Source: Gammaproteobacteria bacterium (lineage in GTDB: Bacteria > Pseudomonadota > Gammaproteobacteria > Eutrophobiales > Eutrophobiaceae). From it: a DNA stretch of 64,000 nucleotides. Of this stretch, positions 4,531 to 63,351 are shown piece by piece. The DNA lies in contig CBDCDS010000003.1 in the NCBI GenBank assembly GCA_965215365.1, forward strand, positions 1,600,001 through 1,664,000, read 5' to 3'. Position numbers and translations under genes: made by a program. The notes beneath the pieces are model-generated. The model saw nothing but the letters and a program-made list of their open reading frames with translations. It did no database searches and had not been told where the DNA came from. Every line of letters starts with the position of its first letter. Positions within the stretch are counted from its first letter, which is position 1.

Positions 4531-5208
4531 ATGGAACAACCCTCAAATTTCATAATCCGCGCGCAGAACCTGGGTAAACGGGTACCAGCACCCGCAGGCG
4601 ACCTGACCATACTGGATGATATAGATCTGGCGGTCAACTATGGAGAGAGTATTGCCATTACTGGCGTATCCGGCTCCGGCAAGTCCACCTTGATCGGGAT
4701 CCTGGCGGGCCTGGACCTGCCGACCCGTGGCAGGGTATTTCTGGACGGCACGGAGCTGACCGCGCTGGATGAAGCCGGCAGGGCCGAGTTGCGCAACCAG
4801 CGCGTGGGCTTCATCTTCCAGTCGTTTCAGTTGCTGCCGGGTCTGAGTGCCCTGGAAAACGTGATGTTGCCGTTGGAACTGGCTGGCAATAATGCCGCGC
4901 GGGAACTGGCGCAGGCGCGCCTGGATGAGGTTGGGTTGGCGCATCGAACCGCACACTATCCCAGGCAGTTATCGGGCGGGGAACAGCAACGCGTCGCTAT
5001 TGCCAGAGCCTTTGCCGTCAATCCACTGGCACTGTTTGCCGACGAGGTGACCGGCAACCTGGACCAGCACAGTGCGCAACAAGTCGCCGACCTGCTGTTT
5101 CGCCTTAACTCGGACTATGGCACGACACTGCTGCTGGTCACCCACGATGCCACGCTGGCGCGCCGTTGCCACCGCACCTTGACACTGGCCGGCGGTCGTC
5201 TGGTTTGA
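4531..5208 (+). CDS. ybbA: ABC transporter ATP-binding protein
   Basis: GVSGSGKS, LSGGEQQRVAIARA, FADE; tesA-ybbAP context; start codons of ybbA and tesA share CATG at 4530-4533. Confidence 0.85.
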   Translation: MEQPSNFIIRAQNLGKRVPAPAGDLTILDDIDLAVNYGESIAITGVSGSGKSTLIGILAGLDLPTRGRVFLDGTELTALDEAGRAELRNQRVGFIFQSFQLLPGLSALENVMLPLELAGNNAARELAQARLDEVGLAHRTAHYPRQLSGGEQQRVAIARAFAVNPLALFADEVTGNLDQHSAQQVADLLFRLNSDYGTTLLLVTHDATLARRCHRTLTLAGGRLV

Positions 5209-7685
5209 TGCGCTTGCTGCGTCTGGCGCTAGTCCAATTCCGGCGCGACTGGCGCGCCGGCGAGTTGCGCCTGTTGGGTCTGGCGCTGATTATTGCGGTT
5301 GCCGGCCTGACCTCGGTGGATTTTTTCACCGACCGGGTGAGACAGTTGACGGAACTACAGGCCACCGAATTACTGGCGGCAGACCTAGTTATCGGCTCTG
5401 CCGAACCCTTCCAGCCGGAATTTCTCGCACAGGCCGAGGCCCTGGGGTTGAAGACTGCGCTGACAACCAGTTTTCGCAGCATAGCAGTGCATGGCGAGCG
5501 GCTGGAGCTTGCGGAAGTCAAGGCGGTGCAGGCCGACTATCCTCTGCGCGGACAGTTGCGGGTTGCCGATGAACTGTTTGCGCAGGAATACCAGACCACC
5601 ACCACCCCGGCGCCGGGCACGGTATGGCTGGACTCCAGGCTGTTCCAGGCGCTGGGGGTGGCGGTTGGTGCGCAGGTCAAGCTGGGCGCGGCGACCCTGG
5701 TTGCGGACCGGGTGCTGACGTATGAACCCGATCGCGGAGGCGATATGTTCAATATTGCGCCGCGGCTGCTGCTGAGCCTGACTGACCTGGAAGCCACCGC
5801 GCTGATCGCGCCCGGCAGTCGGGCCAGGTACCGGTTGCTGCTGGCTGGTGATAATGCCGCGCTGCGCGAGTTCCGGGCGCTGACAGAACGCCATGCGACT
5901 TATGATATTCAGGGTCTACGCGACGCCCGTCCGGAACTGCGCAGTGCGCTGGAGCGCGCAGAACAGTTCCTGGGACTGGCGGTGCTGGTCAGCATTGCGC
6001 TGGCCGGGCTTGCAATTGCCCTGGCGGCGCAACGCTACGCAATCAGGCATTATGATGCCTGCGCGCTCATGCGCTGTTTTGGCGCCACTCCCGGGTTGGT
6101 CGTCCGCATCCACGTCATTCAGTTGTTGCTTACAGCCCTGCTCTACGGCACCCTCGGCTGTGCGCTGGGCTACCTAGGGCAAACCGGTCTGGCGGCGCTG
6201 CTGCAGGAGCTGGTCAACAGGCCCCTGCCCGCGCCGGCGCTGACCCCGCTGCCCGGTGGTCTGGCCGCCGCCGTACTGACCACATTGGGCTTTGCTCTGC
6301 CGCAGATTTTACGGCTGCAGCAGGTCTCATCCATGCGGGTGCTGCGGCGCGATCTGGCGCCGTTGCCAGCGCCTAACCTGAGCGTCTATCTGGCGGCAAC
6401 AGCCTGCCTGTTACTGCTGGCCCTGTGGCTGTCAGGCCGTGAGCGACTGTTTTTATATGGCTGTGTGGCGCTGGCACTGACGGCATTATCGGCCTGGTTA
6501 ACGGCCTTACTGGCCATTCATTGTCTTGACAAGTGGCGCGGCTGGCTTGGTGCGGCCACGCGCTTCGGCTTGTCCAACATCGTGCGCCGGGGGCGGCTGA
6601 GCGCCGTGCAGATCCTCGCCATCAGTCTGGGCATGATGTTATTGACCCTGCTGGCGCTGCTGCGCACCGAGTTACTGGCAGACTGGCGCGCGCGGCTGCC
6701 GGCCGCGACGCCGAATTATTTCCTCATCAACATCCAGCCGCAAGAGGTGGATGCTGTCAGGCAATTCCTGCAGGCACGCACCGGGTTGGCGGCGCCGGCG
6801 CACCCGCTGGTGCGCGCGCGGCTGCTCAGCATAAACGGCAAGGCGGTCAATCCCGATGATTACCAGGACGAACGCGCACAACGCCTCCTGCGGCGCACGT
6901 TTAACTTATCCGTGGCGGAGACCTTGCAGCATGATAACCGTCTTGAACAAGGCGCATGGTGGGATAGTGCCAGTGCCGGCCTGTTCTCTTTTGAGCAGGA
7001 CTTCGCCGCAACCCTGGATATCAGTCTGGGGGACCGGCTGGAGTTCCGTATTGCCGGCGCGCGCGTGGCCGGCACGGTCGCCAATACCCGCCGGGTTGAC
7101 TGGGATACCTTCAACGTTAATTTTTTCGTGCTGGCAAGTCCTGCCACCCTGTCCGGCCACCCCACCACCTACATCACCAGTTTCCACCTGCCCCCGGCGC
7201 GCCGGCCGGTGCTCAACGAGCTCATCAAAAACTGGCCCAGCGTCACCGTGTTTGACGTGGATACAATTATCAGGCAGGTGCGTCTGGTTATGGAACAGGT
7301 GGTACGGGCGATAGAATTCATCTCCGGCTTCACCTTGCTGGCGGGTATTGTCGTGTTGCTGGCCGCGTTGCAAACGACCCATGCTGAGCGGCGGCGCGAA
7401 ACGGCCCTGTTAACCACACTGGGGGCGCGCCGGGGCCAAGTGTTGAGCGGGCTGTTGGCGGAATTTACCGTGCTTGGTCTGCTGGCCGGCCTGGTGGCGG
7501 CACTGAACGCCACGGTGGCGGAGTATCTGCTGGCTGCTTATGTGTTCAGGATGGATTTTTCTTTCAGCCCCCTGGTGTGGCTGGTCACGCCACTGTTGTG
7601 CACGGCTATCACTATCGGCGCCGGCCTGGCCGGCACGCGCAAGGCATTGTCCACTCCGCCCATGCTGACGTTAAGGCAATCCTGA
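5208..7685 (+). CDS. ybbP: ABC transporter permease (FtsX-like)
   Basis: RRDWRAGEL, LLAADL, YPLRG, PNYFLINIQ, RRVDWDTFNVNFF motifs; TGATG overlap with ybbA. Confidence 0.85.
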   Translation: MRLLRLALVQFRRDWRAGELRLLGLALIIAVAGLTSVDFFTDRVRQLTELQATELLAADLVIGSAEPFQPEFLAQAEALGLKTALTTSFRSIAVHGERLELAEVKAVQADYPLRGQLRVADELFAQEYQTTTTPAPGTVWLDSRLFQALGVAVGAQVKLGAATLVADRVLTYEPDRGGDMFNIAPRLLLSLTDLEATALIAPGSRARYRLLLAGDNAALREFRALTERHATYDIQGLRDARPELRSALERAEQFLGLAVLVSIALAGLAIALAAQRYAIRHYDACALMRCFGATPGLVVRIHVIQLLLTALLYGTLGCALGYLGQTGLAALLQELVNRPLPAPALTPLPGGLAAAVLTTLGFALPQILRLQQVSSMRVLRRDLAPLPAPNLSVYLAATACLLLLALWLSGRERLFLYGCVALALTALSAWLTALLAIHCLDKWRGWLGAATRFGLSNIVRRGRLSAVQILAISLGMMLLTLLALLRTELLADWRARLPAATPNYFLINIQPQEVDAVRQFLQARTGLAAPAHPLVRARLLSINGKAVNPDDYQDERAQRLLRRTFNLSVAETLQHDNRLEQGAWWDSASAGLFSFEQDFAATLDISLGDRLEFRIAGARVAGTVANTRRVDWDTFNVNFFVLASPATLSGHPTTYITSFHLPPARRPVLNELIKNWPSVTVFDVDTIIRQVRLVMEQVVRAIEFISGFTLLAGIVVLLAALQTTHAERRRETALLTTLGARRGQVLSGLLAEFTVLGLLAGLVAALNATVAEYLLAAYVFRMDFSFSPLVWLVTPLLCTAITIGAGLAGTRKALSTPPMLTLRQS

Positions 7686-7798: not shown

Positions 7799-8803
7799 AT
7801 GTCAAATTCCACTAATTCTGGCGTGACCGGTATTCTGCTCACCAATCTCGGCACGCCGGATGCGCCGACGGCAGCGGCGTTGCGGAAATATCTGGCGCAG
7901 TTTCTGTCTGATCCACGGGTGATCGATACCCCTAAGTGGCTGTGGTGGCCGCTGTTGCACGGGCTCATCCTGCGGCTGCGGCCGCGCCGTTCTGCCAAGG
8001 CTTACCGGAAGGTATGGACCGATGCCGGTTCACCATTGCTGGCAATATCGCAACAGCAGTGCGAGGCGGTGCGGTCAGCGCTGCAGGCAGCCGGGCGCTA
8101 CCGGGTGGAGTTGGGCATGCGCTACGGCAATCCGTCTATTCGCGCGGCACTGGAGTCTCTGCGCGCCGACCAGGTGAACAAATTACTGGTATTGCCCTTG
8201 TACCCCCAATATTCGGCTGCGACTACCGCATCAACCTTTGATGCGGTTGCCGATGTATTCAAGAGTTGGCGCCAGCTCCCGGCCTTGAGCATGATCAACA
8301 GCTACCATGATAACCCCGGCTACATCGCCGCCCTGACGGCCAGCATTCGCGCCCACTGGGCGCAACATGGGCAGCCGCACAAGTTGCTGTTTTCCTTTCA
8401 TGGTTTGCCCAGGGATTACGTCCTGGCCGGTGACCCTTATGCCGACGAATGCCGCGCCAGCGCGCGCCTGGTGGCGGCGGCACTGGAGTTGGACGAAGCA
8501 CGCTGGGCGGTTGCCTTTCAATCCCGCTTCGGCCCGCGTGAGTGGTTGCAGCCCTACACCGACCAGCTGTTACAGCAATGGGGCGCGTCCGGCATTGCTC
8601 ACGTACAGGTCGTCTGCCCCGGTTTTGCCGCCGACTGCCTGGAGACGCTGGAAGAGATTGCTCTGCTGAACAGAGATTTTTTTCTGGACGCCGGCGGCAA
8701 GGAATTTTCCTATATCCCGGCCCTGAACGACCGCCCTGACCATATCGCCGCGCTGTGCGACATTATCAAGGTGAGTTGTAACTACTCGCCCCCCTCCCTC
8801 TAA
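7799..8803 (+). CDS. hemH: Ferrochelatase
   Basis: LLTNLGTP, PLYPQYS, FSFHGLP, FQSRFG, WLQPYT, DCLETLEEI. Confidence 0.95.
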   Translation: MSNSTNSGVTGILLTNLGTPDAPTAAALRKYLAQFLSDPRVIDTPKWLWWPLLHGLILRLRPRRSAKAYRKVWTDAGSPLLAISQQQCEAVRSALQAAGRYRVELGMRYGNPSIRAALESLRADQVNKLLVLPLYPQYSAATTASTFDAVADVFKSWRQLPALSMINSYHDNPGYIAALTASIRAHWAQHGQPHKLLFSFHGLPRDYVLAGDPYADECRASARLVAAALELDEARWAVAFQSRFGPREWLQPYTDQLLQQWGASGIAHVQVVCPGFAADCLETLEEIALLNRDFFLDAGGKEFSYIPALNDRPDHIAALCDIIKVSCNYSPPSL

Positions 8804-19791: not shown

Positions 19792-20331
19792 ATGTTGATC
19801 ACCAATTCCCGGCTGCGTTTTGGCCTGTTCAGCAAGCTGCTGCACTGGACCCTGGCGCTGCTCATGCTCGGCCTGATCGGGTTGGGCTGGTACATGGTGG
19901 GCCTGACCTACTACGACAAGTGGTACAACGCTTCGCTGCATTACCACAAGTCACTGGGCCTCCTGGCACTGGCCCTGGCTGTGGTCAAGCTGGGTTGGCA
20001 GGTTTATACGCCGGTGCCGCGGCCATTGGCGACCTTGCAACCCTGGGAAAAAGCCGCAGCAAAGCTGATGCACTACCTGTTATGGGGCATGTTGTTGCTC
20101 ATCCCCATCACCGGCTATCTTATTTCCACCGCTGCGGGCAAACCCATCCAGCTGTTCAACTGGTTTGCCATCCCCGCCATCGTGGATGTGGGTGAGGCGC
20201 TGAGAGAACTTGCCATCGACATCCATTTCTATCTGGCCTACGCCACCTTGTTGCTGGTCATCGGCCATGCCGGCGCGGCGCTGAAACATCACTTCATCAA
20301 CCGGGATGAGACGCTGCAACGGATGTTGTAG
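19792..20331 (+). CDS. yceJ: Cytochrome b561
   Basis: LLHW, HKSLG, MHYLL, HAGAALKHHF heme ligands; next to yceI. Confidence 0.88.
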   Translation: MLITNSRLRFGLFSKLLHWTLALLMLGLIGLGWYMVGLTYYDKWYNASLHYHKSLGLLALALAVVKLGWQVYTPVPRPLATLQPWEKAAAKLMHYLLWGMLLLIPITGYLISTAAGKPIQLFNWFAIPAIVDVGEALRELAIDIHFYLAYATLLLVIGHAGAALKHHFINRDETLQRML

Positions 20332-20373
20332 GCGCCTCTGAAAATGCTCTCCGTAGCATTTTCAGAGGCTACC
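20330..20373. repeat. Minimal family A hairpin between convergent genes (probable terminator role)
   Basis: aggcgcctctgaaaatgctctccgtagcattttcagaggctacc. Confidence 0.7.
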
Positions 20374-31049: not shown

Positions 31050-31867
31050 TTCACGTCTCGCCAGTACTCGCGCTTGAGCAGATAGACGAGCGCCAGCAAT
31101 ATCAGCAGGTAAACGATGACCCAGGCGCCGATGGTATTGCGCTTGAGCTTGATGGGCTCACCTAAGTAAACCATGAAGTTGACCAGATCGCGCACGGTTT
31201 CTGCATAGGGTTCGTCCTGGTAGGGCGCTGGTTTGTGCTGTGGTTCGGTGACTACTTCAAGGTAGTCGATGACCCGGGTGATCCTGCCATCGTCGTGAAC
31301 TTGCTCTTTGTAAACAGGTTCCTGCCAGCCCTGCAGCTCCCACAACACATGCGGCATGGCGGTGTCGGGGAAAGCCAGATTGTTGACACCGGTGGGGCGG
31401 GAGGTGTCCCGATAGAACGTCATCAGGTAGGTGTGTAACCAGTCGGCGCCGCGAGAACGGGCAGTCACCGACAGGTCGGGCGGGACGATGCCGAAGTATT
31501 GTTCCGCTTCCGTCCTGTTCAAGGCGACCGTCATGGTGTCGCCGGTCTTGTCGGTGCCGAACATGAAATTTTCCTTGAGCACACTCTCGCTGATGTTCAG
31601 GTCCTGACCCAGACGGTTATAGCGCATGAACGCCGCAGAATGACAACTCAGGCAGTAGTTGACAAAGGTACGGGCACCGCGTTGCAATGACTTGCGGTCA
31701 GACAGGTCAACCTCGGCGTGCATCAGGTCATCGCCGCCGCCGGCTGTCCAGCCAGGGCCGGCAACCAGCAGTAACAGCAGGACAAGGCCACCTCCAAAAA
31801 TTAGAGGTGGCCGTGCGCAGACCAGATTCCACCCGTGCCGGGAATCCACTGTACACCGGGCACTCAT
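31046..31867 (-). CDS. petC: Cytochrome c1
   Basis: CLSCH heme motif, PPDLS, MPHVLWELQG, C-terminal TM; N-terminus partly repeat-derived. Confidence 0.93.
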   Translation of the reverse strand: MSARCTVDSRHGWNLVCARPPLIFGGGLVLLLLLVAGPGWTAGGGDDLMHAEVDLSDRKSLQRGARTFVNYCLSCHSAAFMRYNRLGQDLNISESVLKENFMFGTDKTGDTMTVALNRTEAEQYFGIVPPDLSVTARSRGADWLHTYLMTFYRDTSRPTGVNNLAFPDTAMPHVLWELQGWQEPVYKEQVHDDGRITRVIDYLEVVTEPQHKPAPYQDEPYAETVRDLVNFMVYLGEPIKLKRNTIGAWVIVYLLILLALVYLLKREYWRDVK

Positions 31868-56708: not shown

Positions 56709-57557
56709 TTACTTCTCAGCCAACGCATCGCGCAACCCGTCGCCGAGGAAGTTCAGTGAGAACAGGGTCAGCGCCAGCAGAGTGGCGGGGAACAGCAGGA
56801 GCCAGGGGTATTCTTCCATGGTTTCCACGCCGTAGGCGATGAGCAGGCCCCAGGAGCTCTGGGGGGGTTGAATGCCTAAGCCTAAGAAGCTGAGGAAGGA
56901 TTCCAGCAGGATCACATTGGGTACGGTCAGGGTGGCGTAAACGATCACGGGGCCGGCGATGTTGGGCAGTACGTGTTTGACGATAATGCGCCGGCGCGAC
57001 GCGCCCAGGCTCACCGCCGCTTCGATGTAATCCTGCTGTTTGATATGCAACACCTGGCCGCGCACGATACGCGCCATGGTCAGCCATTCCACTGCGCCGA
57101 TGGCGAGAAATAACAGGATGATATTGTTGCCGAATACTACCATCAGCAGAATGATGAAGATGGTGAAGGGCAGGGCATAGAGGATATCGACCGTGCGCAT
57201 CATCAGTGCGTCCGTGCGCCCGCCCAGGTAACCGGCGAGCGCACCCCAGGTCACGCCGATGAGCAACGCCACGGCGGTGGCGATGAAGCCGACCGCCAAC
57301 GACACGCGGCTGCCGTAGAGCATCCGGGTCAGCAGGTCGCGCCCGAACAGGTCGGTGCCCAGCCAGTGTGCAGCCGAGGGTGCGCTCGGCCCCAGCACCA
57401 GATTCTGGGCAGAGTAGGAGTACGGGCTGAGCCAGGGCGCCAGCAGCGCCAGTAGTGCCAGGGCCGTCAACATGCACAGGCCGAACATAGCCACCTTGTT
57501 GCGTTGCAGCCGCCGCCAGGCATTGCGGCGCGGCGATATGCTGTGTGGCTCAGCCAT
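56709..57557 (-). CDS. oppC: Oligopeptide ABC transporter permease
   Basis: HWLGTDLFGRD, EAA loop, ESFLSFLGLG, NFLGDGLRDA. Confidence 0.9.
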   Translation of the reverse strand: MAEPHSISPRRNAWRRLQRNKVAMFGLCMLTALALLALLAPWLSPYSYSAQNLVLGPSAPSAAHWLGTDLFGRDLLTRMLYGSRVSLAVGFIATAVALLIGVTWGALAGYLGGRTDALMMRTVDILYALPFTIFIILLMVVFGNNIILLFLAIGAVEWLTMARIVRGQVLHIKQQDYIEAAVSLGASRRRIIVKHVLPNIAGPVIVYATLTVPNVILLESFLSFLGLGIQPPQSSWGLLIAYGVETMEEYPWLLLFPATLLALTLFSLNFLGDGLRDALAEK

Positions 57558-57562
57558 ATACA

Positions 57563-57713
57563 GGGCACCTCTAAAAATTAGAGGTGCCCGTGCAGCATAA
57601 GGATATGCTGCTATTTTTAAGCACGTAAGTGCTTGAAAATGAAGGAAACGAAAAATCGCATTTTTTCGTTTCCGTCTCTAAAAATGTCATGGAGGGCATT
57701 TTTAGAGGTGACC
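57563..57713 (+). mobile_element. Family A structured repeat, full-length copy 1 (151 bp), TSD taca
   Basis: taca|gggcacctcta ... tagaggtgacc|taca; five hairpins. Confidence 0.88.
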
Positions 57714-58637
57714 TACAGTCTCGGCGCGCACCTTGGGGTCCAGCCAGGCCAGCAGCACATCGGCAACGATGTTGAACGCGATGATCAAACCGGCAAACAA
57801 CAAGGTGGTGCCCATGATCAAGGTATAATCCCGGTTGAACGCACCCTGCACAAAGTAGCGCCCTAGGCCGGGGATCTGGAAAATGGTCTCCACCACGAAC
57901 GAACCGCTTAATAACCCGGCCAGCGCCGGCCCCAGGAACGACACCACCGGCAACAACCCCACGCGCAGGGCATGGCGGGTAATGATCACGGCTTCCGGCA
58001 GGCCCTTGGCGCGGGCACTGCGAATGAAGTCCCGGGACAGAGTTTCCAGCATACCACCGCGGCTCAGGCGGGCGATATAAGCGGCATACACCGACCCCAA
58101 GGTAACAGACGGCAGGATCTTGTCGCCGGGGATCAGCTCCCAGCCGGCCACCGGCAACCACTCCAGCCAGATGCCAAACACCAGTGCCAGCAGCGGCCCC
58201 AGCACGAATGCGGGCAGGCAGATACCCACCGTGGCAAATGTCATCGGCAGGTAGTCCTGCCAGGTATTAGGCCGCAGGGCCGCGCACACGCCGCTGCCGA
58301 TGCCGATCAGCAGGGCGAACAGCAAGGCGTAACAGCCCAGTTCCAGCGTGACCGGAAAGCCGGCTGCGATAATCTCATTCACCGTCCGCCCCGGATACCG
58401 GAACGACGGCCCCAGGTCGCCGCGCAGGGCGTGACTGAGGTAGTCGTAAAACTGCACGTGAATGGGCTGGTCCAGGTTGTAACGCTCATTTAAGCGCTCG
58501 AGAATCTCTGCCGGCACCGCCTTCTCCGCGGCAAACGGCCCGCCGGGCGCGGCATGGATGAGCAGGAAGGTGATGAAGCTGACGGCAAACAAGACCGGTA
58601 CAGCCTGCAACAAACGCCTGAGAATGAATCCGATCAT
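57702..58637 (-). CDS. oppB: Oligopeptide ABC transporter permease
   Basis: APGGPF, GDLGPSF, ARAKGL, GSFVVETIF, NRDYTL; stop codon lies inside the repeat. Confidence 0.9.
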   Translation of the reverse strand: MIGFILRRLLQAVPVLFAVSFITFLLIHAAPGGPFAAEKAVPAEILERLNERYNLDQPIHVQFYDYLSHALRGDLGPSFRYPGRTVNEIIAAGFPVTLELGCYALLFALLIGIGSGVCAALRPNTWQDYLPMTFATVGICLPAFVLGPLLALVFGIWLEWLPVAGWELIPGDKILPSVTLGSVYAAYIARLSRGGMLETLSRDFIRSARAKGLPEAVIITRHALRVGLLPVVSFLGPALAGLLSGSFVVETIFQIPGLGRYFVQGAFNRDYTLIMGTTLLFAGLIIAFNIVADVLLAWLDPKVRAETVGHL

Positions 58638-58642
58638 ATAAC

Positions 58643-58900
58643 TTATCCGCAGATATTTATCCGCAGATGACGCAGATTAACGCAGATATTTTTTGGGTTA
58701 TTCCTGACATAAGGGCGCCTCTATTACACGAGGCACCCGTGCAGCACAGGGATGTGCTGCCATTTTTAATCACGTAAGTGATTGAAAATGAAGGAAATGA
58801 AAAATCACACTTTTTCATTTCCGTCTCTACAAATGCCACGGATGGCATTTGTAGAGGTTACCATAAAAAAATCTGCGTTAATCTGTGTCATCTGTGGATT
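58643..58900. repeat. CGCAGAT-rich inverted repeat pair enclosing family A copy 2
   Basis: atccgcagatgacgcagattaacgcagat ... atctgcgttaatctgtgtcatctgtggat. Confidence 0.85.
58713..58862 (+). mobile_element. Family A structured repeat, full-length copy 2 (150 bp), TSD ataa
   Basis: ataa|gggcgcctcta ... tagaggttacc|ataa; collinear with 57563-57713. Confidence 0.88.
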
Positions 58901-60500
58901 TAACCAATGAAATGTACTTGTAAGGATGAATATCCAGCAGGTTCGGGTGCCAGCCGCGCACATCCGGCGACACCAGGGCCTTGTTGACGTAGATGTAGAT
59001 GGGCATGATGGGCAGTTCTGCCATGAGGATGTTTTCGGCCTCCCGGAACAACGCGAAGCGATGTTCCTGCTCCGTTGTCTGTGCGGCCCGGGCGAGCAGT
59101 GCGTCGTAGCGCGGGTGGGACCAGCCGGTATCGTTGTTGCCGCTGTGTGAAGTGTACATGTCGAGGAAGGTGTTGGGGTCCAGGTAATCGCCGATCCAGC
59201 CGGCGCGCGCGATCTGGTAATCACGACTGTCGCGCTTATCCAGATAGACCTTCCAGTCCTGGTTGACCAGTTTGACGTCGATATTCAGGTTGGTCTTCCA
59301 CATCTGTTGCACCGCAATGGCGATGCGGCGGTGCCCTTCCGAGGTGTTGTACATCAGTTCCAGCGACGGGAAACCGGCACCATCCGGATAACCGGCCGCG
59401 GCCAGCAGCGTCTGTGCCTGTGGCACATCGTAGCGTAATACAGGTTCGGCTGTATAGCCGTTCACTTCCGGTGGGGTGTAACTGTAGGCCGGCAACTCGC
59501 CGGCCATGGTAATTTTATCTGCTATCTGTTGCCGGTCGAGGGCCAGACTCAACGCCTGCCTGACTTGCACCTGGTGCAGCGGCGCGGCAGTGGTGTTGAA
59601 CAGGTAGTAATAGGTGGAGAAAAAGGGATGCAGTTTCAGTACCTCCGGTCGCTCGCGGCGATAGCGTGCGATCTTGTCGGTGGGTATGGTGCCGGTGATG
59701 TGCAACTGCCCGGCGCGGAACATGCGCTCCTCGGTAGTGGCGTTCTGCACCGGATAGAATACGATCCCGTTCAGTCGCACTGTGTCGGCATCCCAGTAGT
59801 GTTCATTTTTTTCCACCACGATACGACGGTTCAGTGTCCATTCCTTGAGTGTGAACGGGCCGTTGCCGACGAAATTACCCGGACGCGTCCAGCGCGTGCC
59901 GCGCGCATCGGCGGACCCAAAGGCTTCGATGGTGGCCTGGTGCACCGGGTAATAGCTCATGTGTGTGAGCAGCTGCGGAAAAAACGGTGTGGGGTTGTCC
60001 AGTTTGACTTCCAAGGTCAGGTCGTCCAAAGCCTGCACGCCTACCTCGGAGAAATCCGTGAGCTCGCCGCGGTGGAAGGCTTCGGCATTACTGAGGTAGT
60101 ACAGCATGTAGGCATAATTATTGCCCAGCGCCGGCAGCAGCGCCCGGCGCCAGGCATAGACAAAGTCCGCGGCCGTGACCGGGTCACCATTGGACCAGCG
60201 CGCCTGTTCCCGCAGGTGGAAACGGTAAGTCCTGCCATCCTCGCTCACCTGCCAGTCGCGAGCCACGCCGGGCATGATGCGCAGGTGCTGCGGGTGCAGC
60301 GCCAGCAGCCCTTCCAGCAGGGCCAGACACAGCTTGTGCTCAATATGCCCGGTAACAATATGCGGGTCCAGTTCCTGCGGCTCGTCACCGTTGCCGATAT
60401 GCAGGATGCCCTGACGCGTGCCGCGCTCAACGTTGGTTTCGTAATCAAAGCTGCACGAGGCCAGCAGCAGGGCCGCTGCTGCAACTACGGAACGCAACAC
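58878..60500 (-). CDS. oppA: Oligopeptide ABC transporter substrate-binding lipoprotein
   Basis: Lipobox LASC; EPQELDP, WSNGDPVTAADF, NGPF, RAGWIGDY. Confidence 0.92.
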   Translation of the reverse strand: MLRSVVAAAALLLASCSFDYETNVERGTRQGILHIGNGDEPQELDPHIVTGHIEHKLCLALLEGLLALHPQHLRIMPGVARDWQVSEDGRTYRFHLREQARWSNGDPVTAADFVYAWRRALLPALGNNYAYMLYYLSNAEAFHRGELTDFSEVGVQALDDLTLEVKLDNPTPFFPQLLTHMSYYPVHQATIEAFGSADARGTRWTRPGNFVGNGPFTLKEWTLNRRIVVEKNEHYWDADTVRLNGIVFYPVQNATTEERMFRAGQLHITGTIPTDKIARYRRERPEVLKLHPFFSTYYYLFNTTAAPLHQVQVRQALSLALDRQQIADKITMAGELPAYSYTPPEVNGYTAEPVLRYDVPQAQTLLAAAGYPDGAGFPSLELMYNTSEGHRRIAIAVQQMWKTNLNIDVKLVNQDWKVYLDKRDSRDYQIARAGWIGDYLDPNTFLDMYTSHSGNNDTGWSHPRYDALLARAAQTTEQEHRFALFREAENILMAELPIMPIYIYVNKALVSPDVRGWHPNLLDIHPYKYISLVKSTDDTD

Positions 60501-61662: not shown

Positions 61663-63351
61663 CCCAAATCCCGCGATAGAGATTTGAAACAGGCACTTGG
61701 GGTGTATTTTGCTGGTTGGTAGTGCCTGTTTACCGGCAATCGGCTATAAGCTACCCGGATACCGGGGAGGTTGACCGTAGTCTGGTGTCGGATTGGGGTC
61801 ATATCTGGCGCCTGACCCGGTGCTGTCCGACAACACGGACAGGGGGACCCGTCCCCGGCTGGCCGGGGGGATGGCAAGTGCATGACTTGGCGCGGCTACG
61901 CCGCGTGGGGGAGTGGCGGCGGCCGCTCTGGCGGAGCTAACGCCGCCAGCAGGGTCTTAATCAGATCGGCCTGGTCGGTGCGAAACTTCACAAACACCCG
62001 GCGCGCATGGGACACTACCTTGGCGGCTAAGGCCACCACTCGCCAACGGAAGGTGGGCGCCCGGCAGGTGTGCCATTCGGGCGGCAGGGAGTGACGCAGC
62101 AGCACAAACAGGTTATAGGCGGTCACACACAGGTGGAAGTACAGGGCATTGGCATCAAACTGGCCGCACGGCAGGCGCTCGCCGGCGAAGTCACACTTTA
62201 ATTCCTTAATCCGGTTCTCCGAGTCCTCCCCGCGCCGGTTGTACCAGTGGACTATTTCGCTGTCAGTCAAGGTGTCTCGATTCGTTGCCAACGCCCGGTA
62301 GATATAGCGCCCATCGGTCATCGTGGTCGTATCATCCGGCCCGTTCTCATTCTCACCGAAGTCCAGGCACCGTTGCCCACGCTTGCGATAACGCTGCACC
62401 ACCAGCGTGAAGGGGGTCGGGTGCTTGTCCATCGCCCACACGCCCCGACACGTATCCTGCCCAGCCACCACCGCCCCCTCCCGCACGAGCGGCGCCCAAG
62501 CCGACTCCGGGCGCTCGGCTATCCACGCCTTCATGGACTGACTGCGCTTGGCCCGTATCGCGTATTCCAGCTTATGGGTCTGGCAATAGGCCAACACCGC
62601 CCCCTGATACCCCGCCGCATCGACCCGCAGGTGCGTCACACGCACCCCCGCCGGCAACCCCGCCACACAGGTCTTGATAAACCCCGCATTGTCCTCAGCC
62701 GGGGGGACATTCCCAGCCCGGAACGCACACCCTACCACCTGCCCGGTCTCGCTGATATGCCCCAGCATCGGCATATAGCCCCGCTCCCCCAGATACGTCC
62801 GCCGTGCCTCGCGCTTATCCGCCAGCGCCGGCGTGGCGTCAATGTCCAAGGTCACCTCGCTACAGCCCCGCAAGGTCAGTCCCACCAAACGCCGGTTTAT
62901 CGCTGCCAACGCCTCGATGCCTACCTCGTCTTCACCCAGGCGCCGCAACCAATCCCCCAGCATGTCGGCGCTCGGCAAGCGTCGCAACCCCAGCAGCTTA
63001 CGCAACGCCCGGTCCTCACGAATATGACGTACATCCTCTAAACAACGCGCCCCCTCGTGCAGCATCAGCATCCATAACGTCACCACCTCAGCAGGGGGGT
63101 AGCCCCGGTTGCTGCCAGGCCGGGGAAATGCCTGCTCAACCCAGGATGAAAACCCAATCCGCCGCATCAGTTCGGCCACACACAACAACCCGCCGCGACC
63201 GGTCAATAAATCATTGGTCTTTGCTATGGTATAAGGTAAGATGTGCATAAGCCTTGCCTGTTGCACCCATCGGGTGATAGTCATAAGGTTCACAAGACAT
63301 TATACAGACAAGGCTTTTTTCATTCTTGGACTTTCTAAGGCGGGATTAGGG
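61663..63351 (-). mobile_element. IS1380-family element with 6-bp TSD gatctt
   Basis: IRs cccaaatcccgcgataga / tctaaggcgggattaggg; gatctt at 61657-61662 and 63352-63357. Confidence 0.88.
61896..63293 (-). CDS. IS1380-family transposase (DDE_Tnp_1_4); likely start at 63248
   Basis: LTGRGGL, TLDIDAT, RVDAAGY, YNRRGEDSENRIKELK, FDANA. Confidence 0.9.
   Translation of the reverse strand: MNLMTITRWVQQARLMHILPYTIAKTNDLLTGRGGLLCVAELMRRIGFSSWVEQAFPRPGSNRGYPPAEVVTLWMLMLHEGARCLEDVRHIREDRALRKLLGLRRLPSADMLGDWLRRLGEDEVGIEALAAINRRLVGLTLRGCSEVTLDIDATPALADKREARRTYLGERGYMPMLGHISETGQVVGCAFRAGNVPPAEDNAGFIKTCVAGLPAGVRVTHLRVDAAGYQGAVLAYCQTHKLEYAIRAKRSQSMKAWIAERPESAWAPLVREGAVVAGQDTCRGVWAMDKHPTPFTLVVQRYRKRGQRCLDFGENENGPDDTTTMTDGRYIYRALATNRDTLTDSEIVHWYNRRGEDSENRIKELKCDFAGERLPCGQFDANALYFHLCVTAYNLFVLLRHSLPPEWHTCRAPTFRWRVVALAAKVVSHARRVFVKFRTDQADLIKTLLAALAPPERPPPLPHAA

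Follow-up and report, generated by a model that had tools for sequence, protein, structure and literature searches.

A miniature transposable element of uncultured Gammaproteobacteria carries a conserved five-hairpin module with candidate CsrA-binding loops

We analyzed a window of 64,000 nt from the genome of a Gammaproteobacteria bacterium (GenBank assembly GCA_965215365.1, contig CBDCDS010000003.1, positions 1,600,001 to 1,664,000 of the forward strand), in which two copies of a repeat of ~151 nt lie among genes for an Opp-like transporter. The repeat belongs to the miniature inverted-repeat transposable elements (MITEs), has GG..CCTCT inverted ends and folds into five hairpins in a row, termed H1 to H5. 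The best explanation overall, to which we give a probability of about 0.5, is that of a MITE with a selected RNA module that binds CsrA, and the element is best filed as a MITE carrying a TwoAYGGAY-like hairpin module of the Csr/Rsm type. According to this proposal, a transposase supplied in trans would insert the element at AT-rich WTAW sites of 4 bp, duplicating them, and the interior would be a strand-specific module kept folded across a family of uncultured Gammaproteobacteria, with a selected activity that is most likely exerted at the RNA level. Transcription of the + strand would expose the CA(N)GGAUG loops of H2 and H5 as high-affinity sites of the Csr/Rsm type (TwoAYGGAY type), and the element would be a mobile CsrA-binding module, serving either as a decoy or as a site in cis.

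That the element is a MITE, i.e. a non-autonomous DNA transposon, is practically certain. An earlier note on this DNA, made from the letters alone, had described two full copies in the window, each with inverted termini and its own duplication (taca and ataa), and had taken them for a non-autonomous mobile element; all these features are present in the sequence (Table 1) and the interpretation was borne out by the comparison of further copies. The two window copies are 86% identical over 133 nt, the arms of the terminal inverted repeat are 17 nt long and 94% complementary, and the ends, GGNNNCCTCTAAAAAT, are conserved in a MAFFT alignment of 107 distinct full copies from the host genus and its nearest relatives (alignment A1). 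The genome itself (2.73 Mb, 58% GC) carries 31 copies that are full-length or nearly so, three of them with a different 3' end, and gives 114 nhmmer matches at E<=0.001, many of them partial. A 23-nt core word of the element was found at 58 loci of the chromosome of one other metagenome-assembled genome (MAG), hereafter the sister genome, and 55 of these are full-length. Of 28 copies in the own genome, 16 have perfect 4-bp duplications at their flanks (24 match at three positions or more), as do 47 of 54 in the sister genome; control counts at shifted positions gave 0-1 perfect matches. The duplication has the consensus W-T-A-A/W (WTAW) in the host genus, and TTAA, CTAA, CTAG, TTGA and ATAA were seen in other genera. 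Several copies are nested in the AAAAAT loops or the ends of other copies.

Contigs of related strains (runs X5, X7 and X9, library kind unspecified) allowed the two window sites to be compared. Position 58712 is joined to 58870 with a single ATAA in X7 and X9, which is the exact empty site of copy 2. At the site of copy 1, position 57577 is joined to 57702 with an overlap of 9 nt in all three runs, leaving a solo hairpin of 27 nt in place of the element; this configuration fits a deletion between TTAGAGGTG in H1 and its direct repeat in the right end. Solo hairpins account for most of the nine "shorter relatives" that had been listed in the window. Inspection by eye shows part of the terminal motif or a fragment of a hairpin at eight of the nine, the one at 8792 is doubtful, and E<0.001 was reached only by the two derivatives entered in Table 1.

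The five-hairpin fold is under selection, a conclusion that we hold with high confidence. Between the two window copies each of the five stems carries a compensatory change, as the earlier note had recorded, and H1 of copy 2 has in addition a C.A mismatch (GGGCGCC against GGCACCC) that had been overlooked. The larger alignment that had been asked for there also came out in favour of a maintained fold. Within A1, 96.8% of the cells in the five-hairpin structure are paired, and changes on both sides of a pair occur in 23 of the 59 pairs (288 cells), a level reached by none of 500 column shuffles; when the partners were slid by 1-3 columns, 7-10 pairs and 13-23 cells were counted. These changes are largely shared within subfamilies, so that independent events are fewer than the counted cells. 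H1 covaries internally, with its own 3' arm, and the positions of the alignment that do not vary lie in the loops. The H3 loop, which had been described as a GNRA tetraloop, is GTAA in 88 of the 107 copies and GTCA, which is not GNRA, in 13. The conserved U-G pair noticed in H3 is found in 85 of the 107 copies, and a second fixed U.G wobble pair is found in 102.

The fold persists well beyond the host genus. The central module, H2-H3-H4, was recovered with a covariance model (R1, with up to 35 candidates scored per genome) in at least 59 of 126 genomes and at least 22 of 34 genera of the bacterial family. Twenty-nine distinct copies of the central module from across the genera were aligned to this model (alignment A4), and changes on both sides were detected in 25 of 33 pairs, with 98.6% of the cells paired; slid controls gave 5-11 pairs and no shuffle reached the count of both-side changes. 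Because these copies were fitted to the model, the alignment itself favours the structure. The raw sequences of the other genera have stems that are visibly rewritten.

The two strands of the element are not equivalent. Predicted RNA folds of the + strand are the more stable in 106 of 107 copies (mean -79.9 vs -72.7 kcal/mol), and G.U cells outnumber A.C cells, 293 vs 57, or 106 vs 57 after removal of the two columns with a fixed wobble. The excess of G.U is confined to H3, H4 and H5, and the earlier preference for the + strand stands for these three hairpins and not for H1 and H2. The GGA loops, which occur on the + strand, favour this strand as well.

The loops of H2 and H5 point to CsrA as a candidate partner of the module. 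The consensus of CsrA ligands obtained by systematic evolution of ligands by exponential enrichment (SELEX) is described in the available text of PMC4347634 as RUACARGGAUGU, with the GGA positioned in a hairpin loop. The consensus reading of H2 is (A/G)(U/C)ACA(N)GGAUGU, and the hairpin agrees with the SELEX consensus at 9-12 of 12 positions in all 29 diverse copies (12 positions in 6, 11 in 8, 10 in 9 and 9 in 6). Elsewhere in the module the best match reaches 6-9 positions on the reverse strand and 6-8 on the remaining + strand. The loop of H5 contains GGA in 24 of 30 diverse copies, usually as CCAGGAUGG, and TCC in one of 30; three of the six copies that miss the GGA have an insertion or a truncation. 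The loop of H1 contains GGA in none of these 30 copies. Among the copies of A1 the triplet is present in H2 in 105 of 107 and in H5 in 106 of 107, and another GGA, the third, does not vary at the base of H4 within the host genus. The two GGAUG loops are in direct, not inverted, orientation on one strand. Furthermore, the same hairpin is carried by elements with at least three kinds of ends (loci L126 and L218/L220, and canonical TwoAYGGAY copies), which favours a host factor over an element-specific transposase. The gene csrA is present once in the own genome (G000:C3:11843-11998) and in 107 of the 126 genomes of the family. Scans of GGA-dense windows for a canonical Csr small RNA (sRNA) were uninformative, and in the literature searched terms for MITEs and for CsrA or the GGA motif were found combined only in the Rfam 12 paper.

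The hairpins with GGA loops place the element close to the TwoAYGGAY RNA motif (Rfam RF01731, clan CL00106), described by Weinberg et al. 2010 (PMC2864571, available text). Extended, multi-copy TwoAYGGAY RNAs are reported from Pseudomonas, and both Csr/Rsm sponging and a mobile-element-like expansion have been proposed for them, with the link between the two left unresolved in the available text of that preprint (bioRxiv 10.64898/2026.09.22.753630). The likeness is clear: the MITE has hairpin loops of the CA(N)GGAUG form, the RF01731 consensus hairpins ggaCAuGGAUGucc and GCCaUGGAuGGC resemble H2 and H5, and, as in the RNAs of the available accounts, copies are multiple and variable in number between genomes, with extra hairpins and with variants that add GGA hairpins. 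The two loops that define the motif are found in H2 and H5 as CA(N)GGAUG or ACGGAK, in the looser ANGGAN form. The element departs from the motif in other respects. The RF01731 model did not match the window copies (57000-59400, E<=10) or 19 diverse copies (E<=5), and no Rfam model gave an above-threshold match to the window copies or at 19 diverse loci; the best match of RF01731 in the own genome, 34.2 bits and below the gathering cut-off of 43 bits, falls on the 3' portion of a mosaic locus sharing H5 and the right end with this family. The GGA hairpins of the MITE are separated by H3 and H4, and there is no common basal stem, as the ends fold locally into H1 and H5. The explicit inverted ends of the MITE, its 4-bp duplications and its empty site likewise have no counterpart in the available text on TwoAYGGAY. 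In 14 of the 126 genomes of the same bacterial family there are canonical TwoAYGGAY copies that exceed the cut-off; in sister genera these have the same ACAGGGAUGU loop, long basal stems and unrelated ends. The description of the element as a candidate undescribed structured RNA or MITE in the earlier note has therefore to be narrowed: the GGA hairpins are those of the TwoAYGGAY motif, although the RF01731 model itself finds no match in these copies.

A number of observations weigh against a CsrA-binding RNA. The first is the orientation of the copies with respect to genes, which was counted with crude gene calls (open reading frames (ORFs) and a codon-usage caller) and, for the own genome, by hand. 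The + strand is antisense to its neighbours at 14 of the 28 full copies of the own genome, sense at 6, between convergent genes at 1 and between divergent genes at 7; the sister genome gave 22 antisense, 11 sense, 12 convergent and 12 divergent copies and one at a locus edge. Pooling the contexts in which both neighbours run in the same direction, 36 of 53 copies are antisense and 17 sense (binomial p=0.013), so that read-through mRNAs would mostly bear the UCC strand. This bias could reflect the purging of harmful sense insertions, for instance through a terminator-like H2 with its U-tract or through CsrA sites, and oriented insertion could account for it just as well. Along the own chromosome, GC skew is weak and irregular, and local GC skew around the 58 copies of the sister genome was not significant (p=0.09); a replication bias and a gene-direction bias are thus not told apart. 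Secondly, a simple scan of both window copies did not find a sigma-70-like promoter. Thirdly, the strand asymmetry is incomplete, as G.U shows no excess over A.C in H1 (14 vs 19) or H2 (20 vs 15), and G.T wobbles are tolerated in single-stranded DNA hairpins, so that the asymmetry alone is no proof of an RNA. Concerning the motif itself, the third GGA, in H4, has its bases paired in the fold and is not conserved in other genera, the likeness to a CsrA site was spotted post hoc, and csrA is so nearly universal in the family that its presence is compatible with a role of CsrA without being discriminating.

An insertion sequence (IS) with matching ends was not detected in the own genome or at 12 DDE_Tnp_1 loci of five genomes, a search that extended to one transposase family and a minority of the relatives, and this counts against the proposal as well. 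The end motif was absent from these 12 loci, which were taken from 101 PF01609 (DDE_Tnp_1) matches listed, and the ends of the six that were examined for inverted repeats are different ones. In the own genome three pairs of end motifs are spaced 200-12000 bp apart and have matching 4-mers, about the chance level, none of them convincing, and no transposase-like ORF was seen by eye (Pfam was not run) in ten candidate end pairs. The window itself contains an IS of ~1.69 kb (61663-63351) with a DDE_Tnp_1 ORF of 465 aa on the - strand (61896-63293), and its ends, CCCAAATCCCGCGATAGA/TCTAAGGCGGGATTAGGG, form an 18-nt inverted repeat (61663-61680 and 63334-63351) unrelated to the ends of the MITE. 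PF01609 matches similar to this IS, with open frames of 570 aa, lie at three further sites of the genome. The IS5 group uses a 4-bp YTAR target. Like MITEs of the IS5 family, the element has a 4-bp duplication and ends starting with GG, and its target in the host genus is WTAW rather than strict YTAR. Mobilization by an IS5-like transposase, as suggested earlier, has the 4-bp AT-rich target as its sole basis and no IS with matching ends in the loci searched. Combined, we consider that the element may work as an RNA through Csr/Rsm with a likelihood a little short of even, a judgement that draws on sequence and structure and is weakened by the orientation data. The more specific version, in which a DDE-type transposon would spread a multivalent CsrA/Rsm-binding RNA module, and with it the dispersed TwoAYGGAY-like hairpins, by transposition of the cut-or-copy-and-paste kind with 4-bp duplications, and in which the module would stay folded because CsrA binding matters to the element or to the host, is tentative and on balance improbable.

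Among the alternatives, the one that survives best, at odds that remain long, places the hairpins in single-stranded or cruciform DNA, where they would be recognized during transposition by the transposase or a host DNA-binding factor, with no function as RNA. The compensatory changes mark whole subfamilies and would have arisen in source copies that later transposed, the inverted ends themselves lie within H1 and H5, and H1 and H2 have no strand preference. The GGAUG loops, however, are direct rather than inverted, which is not the symmetry expected for two transposon-end sites, and the same hairpin is carried by elements with unrelated ends. G.T pairs are tolerated in DNA hairpins, and the bias against gene direction could follow from replication-coupled insertion, but the link to replication through local GC skew did not reach significance and a single-strand Y1 mechanism (IS200/IS605) is excluded by the true, variable 4-bp duplications and the empty site.

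Somewhat less probable again is a role in RNA that does not involve CsrA, with the co-transcribed hairpins serving to terminate transcription, to insulate or to affect mRNA stability, functions that have been proposed for REP, ERIC, BOX and SPRITE, and with GGA loops that would be incidental or merely Shine-Dalgarno-like. Both window copies have terminator-like sites on both strands, H2 with a subsequent CAUUUUU on the + strand (as in copy 2) and, on the - strand, the reverse of H4 with UUCAUUUUC after it; the five such sites compare with 1.6 +/- 1.4 in shuffles; yet the U-tract of H2 is not kept in other genera (e.g. CAAAUUC) and H4, being A/U-rich, is weak as a terminator stem. The antisense bias could stem from a harmful + strand terminator, and the copies occupy intergenic gaps, often close against genes; repeats of the MITE type are reported to be co-transcribed with their neighbours and to affect mRNA stability (PMC3184786, available text). 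Near-invariant CA(N)GGAUG loops on variable stems, and five separate hairpins, are left unexplained by such a role.

Quasi-palindromes are known to mutate by template switching. A passive MITE, in which template switching or gene conversion between quasi-palindrome arms and subfamily inheritance would generate the covariation in the absence of selection, could draw on the many both-side changes common to whole subfamilies, with independent events far fewer than cells, and on H1, a near-perfect palindrome with A.C and G.U intermediates both present, but it is very improbable, since the two fixed wobble pairs should have been converted to Watson-Crick pairs, the architecture and loop motifs persist over at least 22 genera while the stems are rewritten, and the most conserved positions are loops, which template switching cannot protect.

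Two further candidates were rejected. An IS200/IS605 or PATE mechanism, considered for the same-strand hairpins, is contradicted by duplications that are true and variable, and a coding reading, with an ATG in the linker or in H2, by frames and starts that are not conserved from genus to genus.

Correia elements (CREE/NEMIS) of Neisseria have a TA duplication. As described in the available text of PMC3184786, Correia, ERIC and RUP elements resemble the MITE in being ~100-160 bp long and non-coding, with terminal inverted repeats, target duplications, many intergenic copies and shorter, internally deleted forms. The MITE differs from ERIC, for which the same source gives a TA duplication, by its 4-bp WTAW duplication, and from all three by five local hairpins in a row in place of one long foldback, by stems that covary strongly across genera and by the GGA loops. 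With the sponge sRNAs CsrB/CsrC and RsmX/Y/Z/V it shares several loop GGAs on one strand and, in H2, a near-perfect site of the SELEX type. Unlike these sRNAs, which come from single-copy genes that have a promoter and a terminator of their own, the MITE is mobile and multi-copy, no sigma-70-like promoter was found in its window copies, and the 151-nt form has only two loop GGAs. The CsrB model (RF00018) was not matched in the own genome (best E=0.14; RsmX, RsmY and RsmZ were not searched). The RsmV model (RF04320) gave a weak match at L233:1348-1539, in another genus, scoring 23.9 bits where the cut-off is 100 (E=0.0074), and this match overlaps a copy of the element.

Table 1. Positions in the window of the two copies of the MITE, their hairpins and loops, the adjoining genes and two short derivatives
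Feature	Position	Strand	Basis or remark
Copy 1 of the five-hairpin MITE	57563-57713	+	151 nt; sequence, fold, nhmmer E=1.7e-49
Copy 1, hairpins	H1 57563-57589, H2 57592-57611, H3 57612-57641, H4 57644-57673, H5 57675-57708	+	fold
Copy 1, target-site duplication taca	left 57559-57562, right 57714-57717	.	sequence
Copy 1, GGA of H2 loop	57601-57603	+	GCAUAAGGAUAU; 9/12 positions of the CsrA SELEX consensus
Copy 1, GGA of H5 loop	57691-57693	+	CAUGGAGGG
Copy 2 of the MITE	58713-58862	+	150 nt; missing from related-strain contigs
Copy 2, target-site duplication ataa	left 58709-58712, right 58863-58866	.	sequence; single ATAA at the empty site of the relatives
Copy 2, H2	58741-58760	+	GCACAGGGAUGU, 11/12 positions of RUACARGGAUGU; GGA 58750-58752
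Copy 2, GGA of H5 loop	58840-58842	+	CACGGAUGG
OppB-like permease gene, between copies 1 and 2	57702-58637	-	BPD_transp_1 type, Pfam domain
OppC-like permease gene	56709-57557	-	OppC_N/BPD_transp_1; ATG 6 nt off the left end of copy 1
OppA-like solute-binding protein gene (family 5, SBP_bac_5)	58878-60500	-	operon-upstream of copy 2
Short derivative, solo H5-type hairpin with both ends	20331-20369	-	nhmmer E=3e-4
Short derivative, solo 27-nt H1-type hairpin	31786-31816	+	same form as at the copy 1 site of the relatives

The surroundings of the two window copies are as follows. The Opp-like genes, identified from ORFs with SBP_bac_5, BPD_transp_1 and OppC_N/BPD_transp_1 domains, are all on the - strand, and both copies are therefore antisense to the operon, in agreement with the earlier note. 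The end of the OppB-like gene (the last three codons and the stop, GGT CAC CTC TAA) lies inside a terminus of copy 1, which thereby provides the stop codon, and this copy makes up nearly the whole of the gap that separates the OppB-like from the OppC-like gene (57555-57575, 57702-57713). Read on the - strand, TAGAGGTGCCC, which faces outward from copy 1 at its other end, puts a GAGG ~8 nt upstream of the ATG of the OppC-like gene, and this candidate ribosome-binding site may serve the gene. Copy 2 is nested in another repeat, an inverted repeat with arms of 40 nt (58659-58698 and 58860-58899, 88% complementary, ATCCGCAGATGACGCAGATTAACGCAGAT...) composed of AATCTGNGTT-like units. Runs X7 and X9 differ around this copy, with 58657-58699 duplicated, a spacer of 17 nt and one additional unit of 13 nt.

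Variants of the element were seen at other loci. About ten long variants of ~230 nt have extra hairpins, with loops CCGGAG and CAAGGAUG. Five such variants (G000:C3:1850048-1850278, 5080-5309, 1753173-1753399, 318402-318628 and 1505938-1506169) have these hairpins between H4 and H5, with 2-4 GGA-containing loops in predicted folds. Tandem arrays adjoin fragments of the element at G000:C3:2120217-2122224 and 1858632-1859675, one array having units with a period of 72 nt that are 100% identical and the other units with a period of 243 nt that are ~98% identical. The 23-nt core word also occurs once on CAZVKJ010000016.1 (L059/L189), a contig labelled as an uncultured Bacteroidales MAG, which could be due to a mis-binned contig, to transfer or to chance.

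The interiors of MITEs are normally regarded as passive, drifting DNA. Here a strand-specific fold of five hairpins is kept across at least 22 genera, and the two best-conserved loops of the element have the sequence of textbook CsrA sites. The transposon hallmarks, namely the inverted ends, the 4-bp duplications and the empty site, are new with respect to the TwoAYGGAY class as it is reported in the available text of the literature cited above; with these hallmarks on a TwoAYGGAY-like module, the proposed link between mobility and Csr/Rsm becomes directly testable. Should the RNA role fail, the question of what a transposon requires hairpins in its interior for could still be addressed cleanly with this element. 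If the more specific version of the proposal is correct, the pool of CsrA sites of the cell, whether decoys or targets in cis, would grow, shrink and move between genes with transposition, and CsrA might, for example, be titrated away from a CsrA-repressed transposase mRNA.

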